DNA of 63,856 nt, the filler included, from Stramenopiles sp. TOSAG23-6 (taxonomy: Eukaryota): the NCBI GenBank assembly GCA_900128565.1. It is 3 parts of 3 records of this genome, joined end to end, with 100 filler letters (N's around TTAATTAATTAA, not from the genome) between each part and the next. Parts side by side here need not be neighbours in the genome. Positions count along the whole stretch, not along the records: positions 43,591 to 63,856 come from LT636039.1; 2 more parts are not named here. The stretch is one strand, 5' to 3'. The stretch's first letter is position 1. Every line of letters starts with the position of its first letter. The translations under genes were made by a program, and so were the position numbers. Below, piece after piece: positions 53,308-60,920 of the stretch. Below the pieces are notes generated by a model, which searched no databases, had not been told where the DNA came from, and saw only the letters and a list, made by a program, of their open reading frames with translations.

Positions 53308-56258
53308 ATGGAAGCTATGATGATGGGTCAAAATCCAGGCGGGAAGCAGGAACCCCGAATGGAGCCTGACCAGCATGGTGAACAGGTGCAAGAACGATTT
53401 TTGGAGTTTTTATTCAACTTCACAGAAGGTGGTGAGAATGATAATCCGTCAATGATCTCCACTACTTCTATGGGTAAACAAATGAGAGAGTACGAAGAAC
53501 AGCTTTTGACTATGAGACAAAATGACCACACTACTTTATTTGTAGATTTTCAGCATGTGTTACAACATGATCCTACACTTGCGCGAGCTGTATTAGTAAA
53601 CTATTATCGCTATGATCCTTATCTTCGCAAGGCAATTCAAAATTTTGTGCGTGATCAAGACCCAGAATATGTTACTGACGAGCGTGGAGATAAAGAGTTT
53701 TTTATTTCTATATACAATTTAAGTGAAGTTGAACGTGTGCGAGAGCTCAGAACTGAAAAAATTGGACAGCTTGTGGCAATCACGGCTACAGTGACTCGTA
53801 CGTCAGAAGTCCGTCCGGAACTCATTTACGGTTGCTTTACTTGTCAAGAATGTAGTGCTGAAGTTGACAATGTTGAGCAACAATTCAAATATACAGAGCC
53901 CAAAATTTGTCCAAATGGTGTTTGTAATGCAACTAGTTGGAATCTTGATATTGCTCGATCAAAGTTTGTCGATTGGCAACGTCTACGGGTACAAGAAAAT
54001 TCTGATGAAATCCCTCCTGGATCAATGCCACGTTCTTTCGATGTTGTTTTACGTTGTGAAAGTGTTGAAAGAGCCAAGGCTGGAGACAAAGTTATTTTAA
54101 CAGGTTCCCTTATAGTTTTACCAGATGTAGCTCAATTAATGCGTCCAGGAGAAGGCGCTAAAAGTTCGTCTCGAGGTCAAAGTCGTGGAGACTCAAATTA
54201 TGGTCAAGGTGTAACTGGTTTAAAAGCCTTAGGTGTTCGTGATCTAACATATAAGATGGCGTTTCTAGCTTCCTCAGTTGTGACAGAAGGAAGTCGTCGA
54301 GGTCCAGCTGGAATGGATGTCCGTATGGAAGATGTTGAAGAAGGTGCCGAAGTGGATGTTACTTTGGATTTCACAGAAACTCAAAGAGATGTATGTTTTA
54401 TTTTTTTTCAATTTCGATTTTTTTTTCGTACGAAATTTTGTACCTAACGTTTTTTTTTTGAAATATTTTTCCAAAATACATGAAATTCGAGCAATGAAAC
54501 GAACTCCTCATATTTATTCTAAAATGGCTCAATCACTTGCGCCAGATGTATTTGGTCATGATGAAGTGAAACGAGGGATTTTACTTATGCTCTTTGGTGG
54601 AGTACATAAAAAAACTCAAGATGGTGGGAAACTGCGTGGTGATATTAACGTATGCGTTGTAGGTGATCCCTCTACTGCAAAATCACAATTTTTGAAATAT
54701 GTTTCTGGATTTATGCCTAGAGCAATTTATACATCGGGAAAAGCTTCTTCTGCCGCAGGTCTGACCGCTGCCGTCTTGAGGGATCCAGATACTGGAGAAT
54801 TTTGTATTGAAGCAGGGGCGCTTATGCTTGCTGATAATGGTATATGTTGCATCGATGAATTTGATAAAATGGACCCTACAGATCAAGTTGCAATTCATGA
54901 AGCCATGGAACAGCAAACTATTTCTATAACAAAGGCAGGTATTCAAGCCACTCTAAATGCTCGCGCGTCTATACTAGCTGCTGCCAATCCTATATATGTT
55001 CGTTTACATCATGAATTTTGAATTTATTTATTTTGTATTTTTATTCCAATAGTTTTTTAAATCCTATTCATTTTAAATTTTTTATTTTGTATTGTACCTG
55101 ACGAATTTCAAATTTGATATATTTTTTTATAATACACGGACGATACGATCGATCAAAGACACTACGTCAAAATATCCAAATGTCTGCTCCTATTATGTCT
55201 CGTTTTGATCTATTCTTTGTAGTTCTTGATGACTGTGATGATGTTTTTGATGAAAGAATGGCGTCACATATCGTAAAGTTACATCAAGGAATAGCCGCTA
55301 CTAATGATAATGTCGAATTTACACGAGAACAATTACAAAGATATATCAAATTTGCGAGATCCTTTAATCCTATTATAACAAGAGATGCACAGAAGGTGAT
55401 GGTGGAATGTTACCGTCGTCTTCGACAGAACGACACTGCTGGTGTATCTAAAAAGGCATATAGAATTACTGTCCGACAGCTGGAATCGCTGATACGACTC
55501 TCTGAGTCTTTAGCGAGACTTCATTTGGATGATACTGTACGTCCATCATATGTTATGGAAGCGTATCGATTATTGAAAAAGAGTATCATTCATGTAGAGA
55601 GTGCTGATGTAGACTTCAGTGAGATGGCAGAGTTTGCACAAGCCATGGAAGAGGATCAAATAGCCGTTAGTGCAATGGAGGATGCGAATGAGAAAGCAAA
55701 TAATCCAAATAATGATCACAATGATGCTAATAATAGAAACAACAAATCAGAGGATGAAAATGAAGCAGCTGAAAACAATGCACCATCTGCCTCATGCACA
55801 TATGAGAAATATCAACGTGTCGGTATGATGTACGTTTTCATTTGAATTTCAAATGTATCATTTTTTTTCATAGAAAATTCTGTACCTAACAAAATTTTAA
55901 AAACAAATTTGAAATATTTTCCTAAAAGTACATGATGGCTCTTCATCTTCGAGGTGTCGAAGATACAACAGGTAAAGGTATGATGCAAAAAGATCTTGTT
56001 GCATGGTGCCTTCGTCAACATGTTGATGAATTGGAAACAGAAGCTCAATTATCAGCCGAACAAAGACTCTTTAACCTTATCATTGAAAAGCTTGTAGTCC
56101 AAGATCGCGTTTTTCTTGTAGCTCCTGAAGTNGATGATGATGATGATGATGATGATGATAAAAAAGAAAAGAAGAAAACTGAAAAGAAGAAAAAGAGTAA
56201 AGAGTACATACGGAATCATCGTATTCTTTTAGTACACCCTAATTTTACATTTGATTAA
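53308..56258 (+). CDS. MCM6: DNA replication licensing factor MCM6; exons 53308-54390, 54482-54997, 55138-55829, 55934-56258
   Basis: [42 protein letters not shown], spliced AANPIYGRYD, MSRFDL and RITVRQLES. Confidence 0.96.
54391..54481 (+). other. Family intron (GT..AT), MCM6 intron 1
   Basis: GAT|GTATGTTTT...TTTCGTACGAAATTTTGTACCTAACG...CCAAAATACAT|GAA. Confidence 0.9.
54998..55137 (+). other. Family intron (GT..AC), MCM6 intron 2
   Basis: TAT|GTTCGTTTACATCATGAATT...GTACCTGAC...TAATACAC|GGA CGA TAC restores ANPIY-GRYD. Confidence 0.9.
55830..55933 (+). other. Family intron (GT..AT), MCM6 intron 3
   Basis: AT|GTACGTTTT...TGTACCTAAC...AAAAGTACAT|G. Confidence 0.85.
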
Positions 56259-56528
56259 AATGAAAAAGCTGATTCAACCAAATTCGAGCTTCTGTTATAA
56301 GATCTTTTTATAAAGTGATATTCAATGGATATGTATTGGGTGTGGGATATTTTATTCAATTGTGACACTCATAAAAAATGTCTTTATATTCAATTTTGCC
56401 AACAACACGAAATCCATCTTTTTTCTTTTTTAGCGGTCAATTTCGTCGAATTCTTTGTTGTTGTTATGACTTCCTACAAAAACACACATTCGTGTAAGAC
56501 GAGTACTAATAATTTATATTAGCTCCCA

Positions 56529-58835: not shown

Positions 58836-60920
58836 ATGGCACTACATATTATAATGACCTTCATGCTTGCTTGTTTTATGTGTATTTCAAGAGTTGAGGG
58901 TGCTGACAATGCTCTTACACCTCTTTACTTAAGAAGTATTCGACTTGCTGCTTCACTAGACCCAGGGTTTGCAGATAAATACGGTGAACATTTACCAGAG
59001 GGAATGCGACGAAAAACTCTTCATGAAATTCTTTTTAACTCTGATGTTTTAACAGAATTAGAGAAGCGCGAACATCTAGAATCAATCTTTTCGGATGGAG
59101 GAGAAGAGAAAGTACGTGAAGCACTCAAGAATAAAGTCAATTTACAAGAAGTTGTTGTTGGGGACGCTGTTGAATGTCCGAATCATACAATTTGTAGAGG
59201 TATTCAAAATGATGGTGATAGTTGTTGGTTATCTTCAGCACTTCAACTGACATTGCACATTGATCAGTTAAATGTTTTTTTAACTGATGGAGGTAATGCC
59301 GGTAATGAAGAAAAACAACATGATGTTGGAGAAGCGAAAGCAGCGCTGGCTGAGCAGGTGTCGAACTCTGCGGCCACTTCGAAGGAGCCACCGCATTTCG
59401 GGCTGAGCTACAGGAAGCTGCAAGACGTAATGAAGCACTCGCCTTTTGTGGCTGTTGTGTCAGGGCCGACTTTCAATGCGGCTGTTGTGCCAGGGCCGAC
59501 CCTCAATGCAGCAGCCGTGGAGTTTGCAGCCCCGAAAGGAATCAACCTGGCTGATTTCAAAAGAACTTATGAAGCACATAATGGCTATGCCCTACCCAAA
59601 ACAGTAATTGCTCAAGTAAGACAAAGGATATTTGGAGAAGGATATATAGGACAGCAAGAATCCGATGCATTCTTTACCAGGATGTGGGAGCAAAATATCG
59701 ACCACTATCCTTCGGATTTCGTTTCTGAAGTGGGTGATGAGATACGCTCATTTTATATTGAGACACCCGAGCAAGATTTAACATGTACGTTTTTAAAATT
59801 GAATTTATTAATTTTTTTTCATACGAAATTCCGTACCTAACTATTTTTTTTCATTTAAAAAAAAATCACAATACATGTGAGCAGCTTCCGAGCAAAAACG
59901 TGGTGGAGTGTGTCAAACTTGAAAATCGAATGTTCAAGATTTCTCTTCGTGCAAAAACTCGTTCAAAAACAATTGTAGTTCCTTGGAATGCTGGGGATGG
60001 TGACTCTGTTTCGTTGAGTGCTGCTCACCAAGACTTTTGTGATCATCCAGAAAATTACGTTTCTTCGGTAATTGCCTATGTATGTTTTAATTTTTTTTCA
60101 AAATCGTTTTTTTTTCGTACGAAATTTTTTACCTAACGATTTTTTTTGAAATATTTTTCCAAAACACATGATGAATTTCTTCATTCTGGATTGAACTTGG
60201 AAAACCCAGTGATTATGACTAATGTGGAAGATCAAGAAGAAGTTCATATTAGTCCTCGTTTGTTTTATTTTTTTTTACCAATTTCGACTTTTTTTTTTTT
60301 TTTCAAAAAGCAATTTCATACCTAACGAATTTTTTTTTGTAAAATTCGTGTTTTTTTCACAATACATCATTAACTTGTAGTTTTGCTCGCTATCTTTTAT
60401 CCGCTCGTAGAAGAGGTAATGCAAAGTTTGATCTTACATTTGATGGTGATTTACACGTATGTTTTAATTTTTTTCAATTTCGAATTTATTTTTCGTACGA
60501 AATTTTGTACCTAACGATTATTTTTTGAAATATTTTTCCAAAATACACACTGCTTCTTTTCAAGTAGGGAGTTTCTTCAGAATTGATGGGGAAAAACACG
60601 AAGGGCTTGGAATATACCATGTACGTTTTTTTTCATCATGAATTTTTTACCTACATTTTCATAAGAAATTTCGTACCTAACATTTTTTTTTACGATTTCG
60701 TTTTTTTTTTTTCACAATACATGTGAAAGGGTTTGTGCAGTTTATGGCTGGTAAATCTATTGGCAGTGGTGGGTTTTCGAGTGGTCATTATGTATCTGCT
60801 GTTTTGTTTGATGGTAAATGGATTTTATTTAATGACGAATCTGTTAAATATTTAACTCTTGAAGATGCAATGAAAAGAATGAGTGAGGCTACAGTTCTTT
60901 ATAGTGAAAGGGTGAATTAA
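58836..60920 (+). CDS. Ubiquitin-specific protease (C19)-like protein with signal peptide; exons 58836-59784, 59877-60079, 60170-60257, 60368-60456, 60549-60620, 60723-60920 (532 aa)
   Basis: Cys box GIQNDGDSCWLSSALQ, QQES, and His box SGHYVSAV...WILFNDESV. All six exons stay in frame when the five family introns are removed. Confidence 0.8.
59785..59876 (+). other. Family intron (GT..AT), USP intron 1
   Basis: ACAT|GTACGT...CGTACCTAAC...CACAATACAT|GT. Confidence 0.85.
60080..60169 (+). other. Family intron (GT..AT), USP intron 2
   Basis: TAT|GTATGT...TTTCGTACGAAATTTTTTACCTAACG...CCAAAACACAT|GAT. Confidence 0.85.
60258..60367 (+). other. Family intron (GT..AT), USP intron 3
   Basis: CTC|GTTTGT...CATACCTAACG...CACAATACAT|CA. 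Confidence 0.8.
60457..60548 (+). other. Family intron (GT..AC), USP intron 4
   Basis: CAC|GTATGT...TTTCGTACGAAATTTTGTACCTAACG...CCAAAATACAC|ACT. Confidence 0.85.
60621..60722 (+). other. Family intron (GT..AT), USP intron 5
   Basis: CAT|GTACGT...CATCATGAAT...CGTACCTAAC...CACAATACAT|GTG. Confidence 0.85.

Follow-up and report, generated by a model that had tools for sequence, protein, structure and literature searches.

The question raised by a stretch of DNA from Stramenopiles sp. TOSAG23-6 (GenBank assembly GCA_900128565.1) is how introns that end in AT or AC instead of AG are recognized, and whether the unusual acceptor is brought along by a mobile intron or made from its target. The window, that is the whole stretch analysed (63,856 nucleotides, 63.9 kb), consists of three contigs chained end to end and is AT-rich (about 37% GC), gene-dense and eukaryotic. 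A sequence-only reading of positions 54389–60548, which cover introns of the MCM6 and USP genes, had described elements with the layout AY[GTA...TAC]AY and proposed an introner related to miniature inverted-repeat transposable elements (MITEs), in which a 2-bp target duplication supplies a non-AG acceptor. The repeated introner-like family and the non-AG acceptor of that proposal were borne out, as was, judged by reading frames and protein domains, the exact restoration of the coding sequence upon excision. The acceptor itself most likely belongs to the element and not to a target duplication.

The introns form a repeated introner-like family in unrelated genes. An nhmmer profile built from 12 clear copies was run against both strands of the entire window and returned 21 copies, 18 complete and three cut by contig or window ends, distributed across the whole window and well beyond the region in which they were first noticed. 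This corresponds to a density of 21 per 63.9 kb (about 330 per Mb). Eighteen of the 21 have E < 1e-6, and for 16 copies the E-values lie between 1e-11 and 5e-21; three are marginal (57952–58062, E = 7e-5; 54998–55137, E = 0.0065; 5642–5730, E = 0.011). Nearly all introns of the window belong to this one family, with lengths of 89–111 nt. With a slash marking the exon–intron boundary, the consensus reads AT/GTAYGTTTT ... TTTCGTACGAAATTTTGTACCTAAC ... T-rich tail ... AATACAT/G, and the order inside the intron is GTAYGTTTT, a TTTCGTACGAAA core, the branch-site word GTACCTAAC, the T-rich tail and AATACAT. The branch-site word occurs 25 times in the window with at most one mismatch, where 6.96 occurrences are expected, and none of 100 shuffles reached 25.

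Two subfamilies can be distinguished. Subfamily A has the 3′ end GAAATATTTTTCCAAAATAC, and its five complete copies are 77–93% identical over their full length although they reside in unrelated genes, including MCM6 and USP (two copies). The shared sequence includes stretches without a known role in splicing (TTTCAATTTCGAATTT, TTTCGTACGAAA, GAAATATTTTTCC). The similarity is not limited to splice signals; the sequence-only reading had stated that a similarity limited in this way would refute its proposal. Subfamily B starts with GTAYGTTTTCATCATGAATTT, ends with TTTTCACAATAC and shows 53–69% identity, and the three divergent introns (5642–5730, 54998–55137 and 57952–58062) have mainly the splice signals in common, at 32–57% identity. 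The exon sequences around the copies are unrelated to each other and the similarity stops at the exon boundaries. Identified hosts are a kinesin, two GYF-domain genes, glycerol-3-phosphate dehydrogenase, MCM6, USP and a MORN-repeat gene; other hosts gave no Pfam match. Both contig joins and the end of the window lie inside a family copy, as would be expected of a high-copy repeat, which tends to break assemblies. A further copy, CAT/GTATGT...CACAATACAT/G, is present in an independent metagenome contig (L052). The 19-mer ACGAAATTNNKTACCTAAC matched 76 metagenome loci, of which L052 alone holds a true copy by nhmmer; its 2 viral and 31 prokaryote-genome loci were all chance matches, and L106 is a 30-nt partial match.

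The splice signals are orthodox on the donor side and unusual on the acceptor side. Each copy carries, in the sense orientation of its host, a GTAYGT-type donor hexamer, a (GTA)CCTAAC branch site and a T-rich tract of 32–47 nt. The donor dinucleotide is GT in 19 of the 20 visible donors and GC in one. The terminal dinucleotides of the 18 complete copies are GT-AT in 15, GT-AC in two and GT-AG in one. Intron positions −2, −3 and −4 are A, C and A in all 18, while the last base is T (15), C (2) or G (1). The CCTAAC-type branch motif lies 32–53 nt from the intron end in 17 of 18 copies and 19 nt from it in copy 4. A simple rule in which the first ACAT past the branch site is the acceptor was considered and rejected, as it fails in 4 of 18 introns. 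An Rfam scan of the window, small nuclear RNAs (snRNAs) included, gave no matches. The core had been described as starting with GTA(T) and ending with (A)TAC; the end holds, with TAC plus two nucleotides in 16 of 18 complete copies, but a GTA start is found in only 11 of 18 (13 of the 20 visible donors), the rest being GTG, GTT and, once, GCA.

The exon side is biased, too. The counts given by the sequence-only reading were reproduced from the table of flanks: the two exon bases preceding the donor are AT in 15 of 20 cases and AC in two, with single cases of TT, CT and TC and none of AG, and all 20 visible donors have a pyrimidine at position −1. Its two examples, AT..AT in MCM6 intron 1 and AC..AC in USP intron 4, are likewise in the sequence. 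In the background of long open reading frames (ORFs) the frequency of AT is 9.1% (binomial P = 2e-12 for the observed count) and that of a pyrimidine 0.446 (P = 1e-7). Among the complete copies exon position −2 varies (A 15, T 2, C 1). The downstream exon starts with G in 13 of 18 and exon position −3 is C in 9 of 18. The junction AT/G is found in 11 of 18 copies, as compared to 2.6% for the trinucleotide ATG in coding sequence, and four phase-2 copies split a Met codon. The bias toward AT/G junctions could reflect either insertion specificity or what splicing tolerates.

Reading frames and homologous proteins point to precise removal. In a frame test with 150-nt flanks (100 codons), excision of GT...ACAN gave exactly one open frame for all 16 introns tested, and excision of all five USP introns gave a single ORF of 532 amino acids. 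The domains of the kinesin, the MCM protein, glycerol-3-phosphate dehydrogenase and leucyl aminopeptidase (LAP) would be restored residue for residue. The Pfam kinesin profile covers positions 1–292 before the tandem pair at 2551–2734 and 293–327 after it. In six kinesins from the PDB the upstream exon aligns up to a residue n and the alignment of the downstream exon continues with n+1 (7a3z 293/294, 6a1z 318/319, 3zfc 302/303, 3b6u 318/319, 6mlq 315/316, 4bn2 314/315). Across 54998–55137 the MCM P-loop profile runs from 4 to 174 before and from 176 to 224 after the intron. Across 49975–50072 NAD_Gly3P_dh_C extends to position 35 upstream and resumes at 38 (residue 2) downstream, with one split codon between. 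The LAP intron, taken as GT-AG, gives the junction ADA-L-TY, and the corresponding column of 116 homologues holds L 70, M 21, I 16, F 6, C 2, D 1 and V 0. Adjacency in PDB chains was also tried as a boundary test for MCM6 intron 1 but was uninformative, the site being a variable linker.

The most serious competitor of an element-borne acceptor is the one originally proposed: a MITE-like DNA transposon with GTA...TAC ends that targets AT or AC, duplicates 2 bp, and whose 3′ duplicate serves as the non-AG acceptor. We consider it unlikely. In its favour, AT..AT is found in 11 and AC..AC in one of the 18 complete copies, the GTA..TAC core forms a 3–4-bp inverted repeat, and copies 12 (54391–54481) and 19 (60457–60548), which are 93% identical, are flanked by AT..AT and AC..AC, respectively. 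Gozashti 2022 documents families in which a target-site duplication (TSD) provides one of the splice sites, as well as families with and without TSDs and terminal inverted repeats (TIRs). The model predicts that the two dinucleotides agree within copies, and this was tested on the 18 complete copies by permuting the pairings of exon ends and intron ends. That the dinucleotide usually recurs is correct as a count, since it is identical in 12 of 18 copies, but this is no excess, as chance pairing alone leads to 11.0 matches on average (P = 0.29); for position −1 taken by itself agreement is 14 of 18, with 12.8 expected. The seven copies in which at least one side is not AT include a single match (AC with AC) and six mismatches (exon end first: TT with AT, AC with AT, CT with AT, TC with AT, AT with AC, AT with AG). 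Furthermore, AT is its own reverse complement, so that AT..AT may equally be regarded as an extension of an inverted repeat ATGTAT..ATACAT.

The kinesin gene offers a more direct view. Its upstream exon ends in the codon CTT of a conserved Leu (DSL/GG), and the adjoining copies end in AT. Because Leu codons have T at the second position, this exon could never have ended in AT, and the A of the intron end was therefore not copied from the target. The two copies here abut as ...ATACAT/GTATGT... with nothing in between. The invariant A at intron position −2, set beside the varying exon position −2, likewise argues against the duplication model.

Other hallmarks of DNA transposons are scarce as well. 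Complementarity of the arms beyond the first 4 nt exceeds that of shuffled sequences (P < 0.05) in only 2 of 18 copies. The inverted ends amount to GTA(T)/(A)TAC, which overlaps the splice signals, and both arms are T-rich on the sense strand. The 21-nt imperfect inverted match that had been pointed out is indeed present in 60457–60548, but beyond 4 nt it has 10 of 20 positions matched, with a shuffle mean of 8.7 (P = 0.21). The 20 copies with a placeable host are all genic and in sense orientation, and copy 9 begins at a contig join; no antisense or clearly intergenic full copy was found among the 21. A rough estimate, which takes about 10 kb of the window to be intergenic, would place about a quarter of randomly inserted surviving copies there. 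A sense bias also exists in Micromonas introners. No transposase or reverse transcriptase domain was detected by Pfam in 37 sequences of the window, a scan that left out the two largest ORFs. The profile census suggested by the sequence-only reading yielded, for the window, the copy number and flank counts but neither antisense or intergenic copies nor, in the ORFs scanned, a transposase domain, and the MITE-like character and the 2-bp duplication as the source of the acceptor are not supported by these results. Folding of the RNA offers no alternative for bringing the ends together: minimum free energy z-scores range from +0.26 to −2.32 (10 copies), the ends pair over no more than a 4-bp GUAU/AUAC helix except for 8 bp in 5380–5472, and donor position +4 and intron position −6 do not co-vary except in copy 14. 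A hairpin or end-pairing model was rejected on these grounds.

A second possibility, which we regard as very improbable, is that the introns are cut in another register, as AT-AC (ATGTAYG...ATAC) or TG-CA (TGTAYG...ATACA), and that the GT-AT appearance is an artefact of the repeated AT. Because AT is repeated at both ends, GT-AT, TG-CA and AT-AC give the same mRNA in most copies, and for the AT..AT copies all three are equivalent. A and C are a known compatible pair of first and last bases in U2- and U12-type AT-AC introns, and TG...CA ends are typical of substrates of DDE transposases and integrases. Read as TG-CA, the two tandem copies adjoin without a gap, and the ends of the element would form the 5-bp inverted repeat TGTAT/ATACA. 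The AT-AC register, in turn, would convert the kinesin junction DSL/GG to DSH/GG, with loss of the conserved Leu, and requires TT, CT, TC or AC as first dinucleotide in 5 of 20 copies. TG-CA requires CG starts in 3 of 20, and either shifted reading places Val in LAP, where none of the 116 homologues has Val and 70 have Leu. Moreover, GTAYGT is the standard donor recognized by U1 and U6 and is cleaved before the G. The introns share non-AG acceptors and a CCTAAC-like branch motif with U12-type (minor) introns, which are not strict about their 3′ end and allow AC among others. The donor here is GTAYGTTT and the U12 donor RTATCCTT is absent; the U12 branch site lies 10–26 nt from the acceptor, a distance that only copy 4 shows. 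The canonical donor, the LAP intron and the kinesin junction set the register, and on this sequence evidence the family is read as GT-AT/GT-AC, with GT (GC once) at the 5′ end and ACA plus one base at the 3′ end.

It is highly improbable that no mobile family exists and that old ordinary introns resemble each other through lineage-specific splice signals and AT-rich or T-rich composition. The three most divergent introns, which share little beyond the signals, would fit such a view, but the full-length identity within subfamily A, the E-values of the 16 strongest copies and the assembly breaks inside copies would not. In other organisms the MCM6 homologues, among them ORFs on 8–18-kb contigs, are also unbroken at both MCM6 intron positions. 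Removal at the DNA level, like that of ciliate internal eliminated sequences with their 2-bp direct repeats and short inverted ends, can practically be discarded, since the AT[GTA...TAC]AT layout does resemble that of the TA-bounded eliminated sequences of Paramecium but every copy has its donor hexamer, CTAAC branch site and T tract in the sense orientation, independent genomic sequences retain the elements (L052, and P0001, which reads through into intron 15), and stramenopiles are not known to eliminate DNA.

In view of the above, the reading that we consider probable as a whole is an introner-like family with major-spliceosome signals and an AT acceptor carried by the element, inserted at AT^G with a duplication of at most 1 bp or none. 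The major spliceosome of this lineage would tolerate a last intron base other than G and would read roughly ACA+N at a set position. The terminal AT would be part of the element itself, not copied from the target. The element would enter coding sequence preferentially at ...AT^G..., always in the sense direction. Insertion without a staggered cut, for example by reverse splicing and reverse transcription or by a DNA route that leaves no TSD, would fit at least as well as MITE-type cut-and-paste.

Several points weigh against this reading. The identical dinucleotides in 12 of 18 copies are compatible with a short duplication, and the closely related copies 12 and 19 differ in parallel at their two ends; among young copies, the single one with an AC intron end is preceded by an AC exon end as well. 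About a quarter of the mismatches could be put down to decay of a former duplication, and with only 18 copies the power of the permutation test is low, so that a 1–2-bp duplication is compatible with the data. Since the last exon base equals the last intron base in 14 of 18 copies, GT-AT and TG-CA cannot be distinguished in the mRNA of these. The choice of acceptor is also not accounted for: copies 2, 5, 7 and 11 (4 of 18) have an earlier ACAT between the branch site and the acceptor used, and copy 14 has AAAG 5 nt upstream of its putative acceptor, and use of any of these would break the frame. The sample amounts to a single 64-kb window and one copy outside it. Finally, splicing is inferred from frames and homology only, and three protein searches (USP exon 1, LAP exon 1, MCM6 exon 2) did not retrieve any protein of this organism that derives from a transcript; there was no match at all for USP exon 1, and none above 87% identity for MCM6 exon 2.

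The individual copies illustrate the range of the family; all lie on the plus strand unless stated otherwise. The kinesin carries the tandem pair, in which copy 1 (2551–2645, subfamily B; CTT/GTATGT...CAATACAT; nhmmer 55 bits) is directly followed by copy 2 (2646–2734; GTATGT...CATTACAT/GGA; 29 bits) with no exon between them, the predicted junction being DSL/GGTSKT. Copy 3 (5380–5472, subfamily A; AAT/GTGTGT...AAATACAT/G; 67 bits) lies in phase 2, has the junction codon ATG and leaves one open frame upon removal. This also holds for the divergent intron 4 (5642–5730; GAC/GTGCGT...TACCTAAC...TTGACAT/A; E as given above), in which the exon ends in AC and the intron in AT. Copy 5 (8095–8194; CCT/GTACGT...CAATACAT/GG; 52 bits) interrupts a GYF-domain gene whose upstream exon stops at position 20 of the 45 of the GYF profile, and its removal gives one open frame. 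The same result was obtained for copy 6 (11365–11464, subfamily A; CAT/GTATGT...AAATACAT/C; 63 bits), which lies on the minus strand in a minus-strand gene, for copy 7 (15202–15301, subfamily B; AAT/GTACCT...CAATACAT/G; 39 bits) and for copy 8 (19491–19595; TAT/GTTTGT...CAATACAT/G; 38 bits) in a gene with GYF and DSPc domains.

The contigs are separated by artificial joins (44 N, TTAATTAATTAA, 44 N) at 21707–21806 and 43491–43590. Copy 9 (21807–21865; ...CACAATACAT/C; 25 bits), of which just the 3′ part is present, begins at the first join, and copy 10 (43591–43676, minus strand, subfamily A; TCAT/GTATGT; 41 bits) runs into the second, leaving the 5′ part; it lies in sense orientation in the MORN-repeat gene, recognized by Pfam in the upstream exon. 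Copy 11 (49975–50072, minus strand; TAT/GTACGT...AAATACAT/G; 52 bits) interrupts the glycerol-3-phosphate dehydrogenase and is the one bridged by NAD_Gly3P_dh_C.

MCM6 has three introns. Copy 12 (54391–54481, subfamily A; GAT/GTATGT...AAATACAT/G; 67 bits) is intron 1 and leaves one open frame. The divergent intron 13 (54998–55137), intron 2 of the gene, is GT-AC (TAT/GTTCGT...TACCTGAC...TAATACAC/GG) and is matched by nhmmer in its 3′ part only. Copy 14 (55830–55933; GAT/GTACGT...AAGTACAT/G; 38 bits) is intron 3, again with one open frame. The divergent intron 15 (57952–58062; CAT/GTTCGT...CACAATACAG/TA; 18 bits) in the leucyl aminopeptidase gene is the sole GT-AG case.

The USP gene contains five copies, whose joint removal gives the 532-residue ORF: copy 16 (59785–59876; CAT/GTACGT...CAATACAT/G; 49 bits) as intron 1, copy 17 (60080–60169, subfamily A; TAT/GTATGT...AAACACAT/G; 59 bits) as intron 2, copy 18 (60258–60367; CTC/GTTTGT...CAATACAT/C; 42 bits), with a TC exon end and an AT intron end, as intron 3, copy 19 (60457–60548, subfamily A; CAC/GTATGT...AAATACAC/A; 70 bits), the AC..AC copy, as intron 4, and copy 20 (60621–60722, subfamily B; CAT/GTACGT...CAATACAT/G; 53 bits) as intron 5. 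Copy 20 contains a 26-nt unit, TTTTCATnnGAAATTTnnTACCTAnC, twice at 60630–60686; the segment before its branch site resembles the 5′ segment of subfamily B, forming an internal direct repeat. Two further peculiarities of the gene were noted. At 59300–59550, within USP exon 1, there is an in-frame island of 53–60% GC in surroundings of about 37%, with a 30-nt unit present twice (59450–59509). At 60852–60980 a 65-nt tandem duplication (95% identical) extends across the stop codon, so that the last coding segment is repeated just past the gene. The last copy of the window, copy 21 (63792–63856, subfamily A; AAT/GCACGT; 39 bits), has a GC donor and is represented by its 5′ part, being cut by the window end.

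Some observations concern sequences outside these introns. The palindromic core of the element, TTCGTACGAA, with some similarity over about 20 nt of flank, occurs exactly in intergenic DNA at 1320–1345 and 53120–53145, just upstream of the kinesin and MCM6 genes; these occurrences could be relics of intergenic insertions or a common protein-binding motif. In contig L052, facing telomere-like repeats AAACCCTAA ... TTAGGGTTAGGG are found at about 870–960 (plus-strand coordinates), downstream of the intron-bearing gene, and its opposite strand has an apparently ordinary GT-AG intron, GTACGT...TACCTAAT...CACAG. An apparent extra intron in a nucleotide-sugar transporter of the window was rejected: a run of ten T at 17471–17480 splits the gene into two frames, with Pfam positions 2–44 and 44–315 in different frames, which suggests a frameshift or an error in the length of the homopolymer.

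Among described systems, the introns of the tunicate Fritillaria borealis are the closest parallel on the acceptor side, with AC and AT acceptors in both (PMC13326754). In Fritillaria YAY is described as "often" preceding the 5′ splice site and "almost invariably" forming the last three intron bases (PMC13326754), and the 3′ site is said to have arisen from an exonic TAC (PMC11282704). The last three bases here are CAY in 17 of 18 copies (CAT 15, CAC 2; CAG in the remaining one), and exon positions −3 to −1 are YAY in 10 of 18. The Fritillaria introns are lineage-specific, ascribed to transposon insertion and handled by the major spliceosome (PMC13326754, PMC11282704), and the present family is predicted to resemble them in these respects. 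The donor side differs: Fritillaria introns mostly start with AG (AG/AC, AG/AT) and only 5% are GT/AG (PMC13326754), whereas the present introns have a GTAYGT donor and a strong CTAAC branch site. Fritillaria is moreover an animal and the present organism a stramenopile protist, in which a duplication like that of TAC reported for Fritillaria is not demonstrable.

The introners of Micromonas pusilla and Aureococcus anophagefferens resemble the present family in being short, non-autonomous and high-copy, in occurring in unrelated genes of marine picoplankton and, by prediction for the present copies, in their exact removal as spliceosomal introns (PMC11282704, PMC9860276). They are characterized by TSDs of constant length (with TIRs in Aureococcus), a TSD-derived splice site and GT/GC-AG ends (PMC11282704, PMC9860276); the present copies show no demonstrable TSD or TIR and have a non-AG acceptor. 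The family as read here also resembles the "direct insertion" introners, such as those of Alternaria alternata in Fig. 2 of Gozashti 2022, in which both splice sites are part of the element and which show sense insertion into genes without duplication or inverted ends. These fungal elements are canonical GT-AG introns and usually structured, unlike the weak RNA folds computed here. The marine protist Amoebophrya also has repeated introns that escape the GT-AG rule and are thought to spread like transposons (PMC7789003). Its elements have inverted repeats of 8–20 nt in hairpins, direct repeats of 3–5 nt and inconsistent terminal dinucleotides, and U1 snRNA was undetected (PMC7789003), whereas the family described here shows one defined GT...ACAY pattern, no hairpin and an orthodox donor.

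Introner elements of Micromonas and Aureococcus were reportedly treated by Huff, Zilberman and Roy in 2016, and fungal introner-like elements are further examples of introners without TSDs or TIRs. We found no paper that connects introners with GT-AT ends or with marine stramenopile (MAST) or other uncultured stramenopile lineages, although the supplementary tables of Gozashti 2022 and 2025, which name species and families with introners, could include the lineage. Likewise, the literature search, which covered papers without their supplements, gave no report of a GT-AT-dominated intron set. A keyword look-up in the main text of two MAST genome papers found no mention of non-canonical splice sites.

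By protein affinity the organism is a stramenopile, probably from an uncultured marine lineage. The search with LAP exon 1 returned a 99%-identical genomic read-through ORF and the EukProt entry GSMAST32.ASY1.ANO1.158.1 (P0002), which is the same gene, mis-spliced. The P0002 model (window positions 56523–58547) reads into the LAP intron, joins an internal GT to the AG at 58062 and deletes genuine coding stretches elsewhere; because of these deletions it is only 88% identical to the exon of the window. The next-best named matches are from oomycetes (36–39% identity). Among 12 sequencing runs listed by word content, seawater DNA runs contain 0.43–0.62 of the words and RNA runs 0.05–0.15, a listing that may indicate a seawater habitat.

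A more far-reaching proposal, which we put forward tentatively and as less likely than the reading above, is that the major spliceosome of this lineage no longer needs a terminal G and accepts ACA followed by U or C, so that GU-AU would be the normal intron type, and that an introner with an AT acceptor has colonized AT^G sites throughout the genome without duplication and always in sense orientation, as reverse splicing predicts. If this is true, the genome-wide copy number would run into the thousands at the density of the window, and public gene models built on GT-AG would be systematically wrong for the lineage. Proteomes of an abundant marine group, as well as surveys that consider only annotated GY-AG introns, would miss or garble such genes.

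No current explanation accounts for bursts of intron gain better than introners do, and the extent to which the rules of the spliceosome bend to absorb them is visible in only a few lineages (Fritillaria, Amoebophrya, euglenids). The combination of an orthodox donor and branch site with an acceptor that is AT/AC throughout would single out the step at the 3′ splice site. The family raises the questions of how the second catalytic step recognizes the last base of the intron and whether factors of the U2AF type are altered, and it bears on whether introners need a transposase-type duplication in order to spread.

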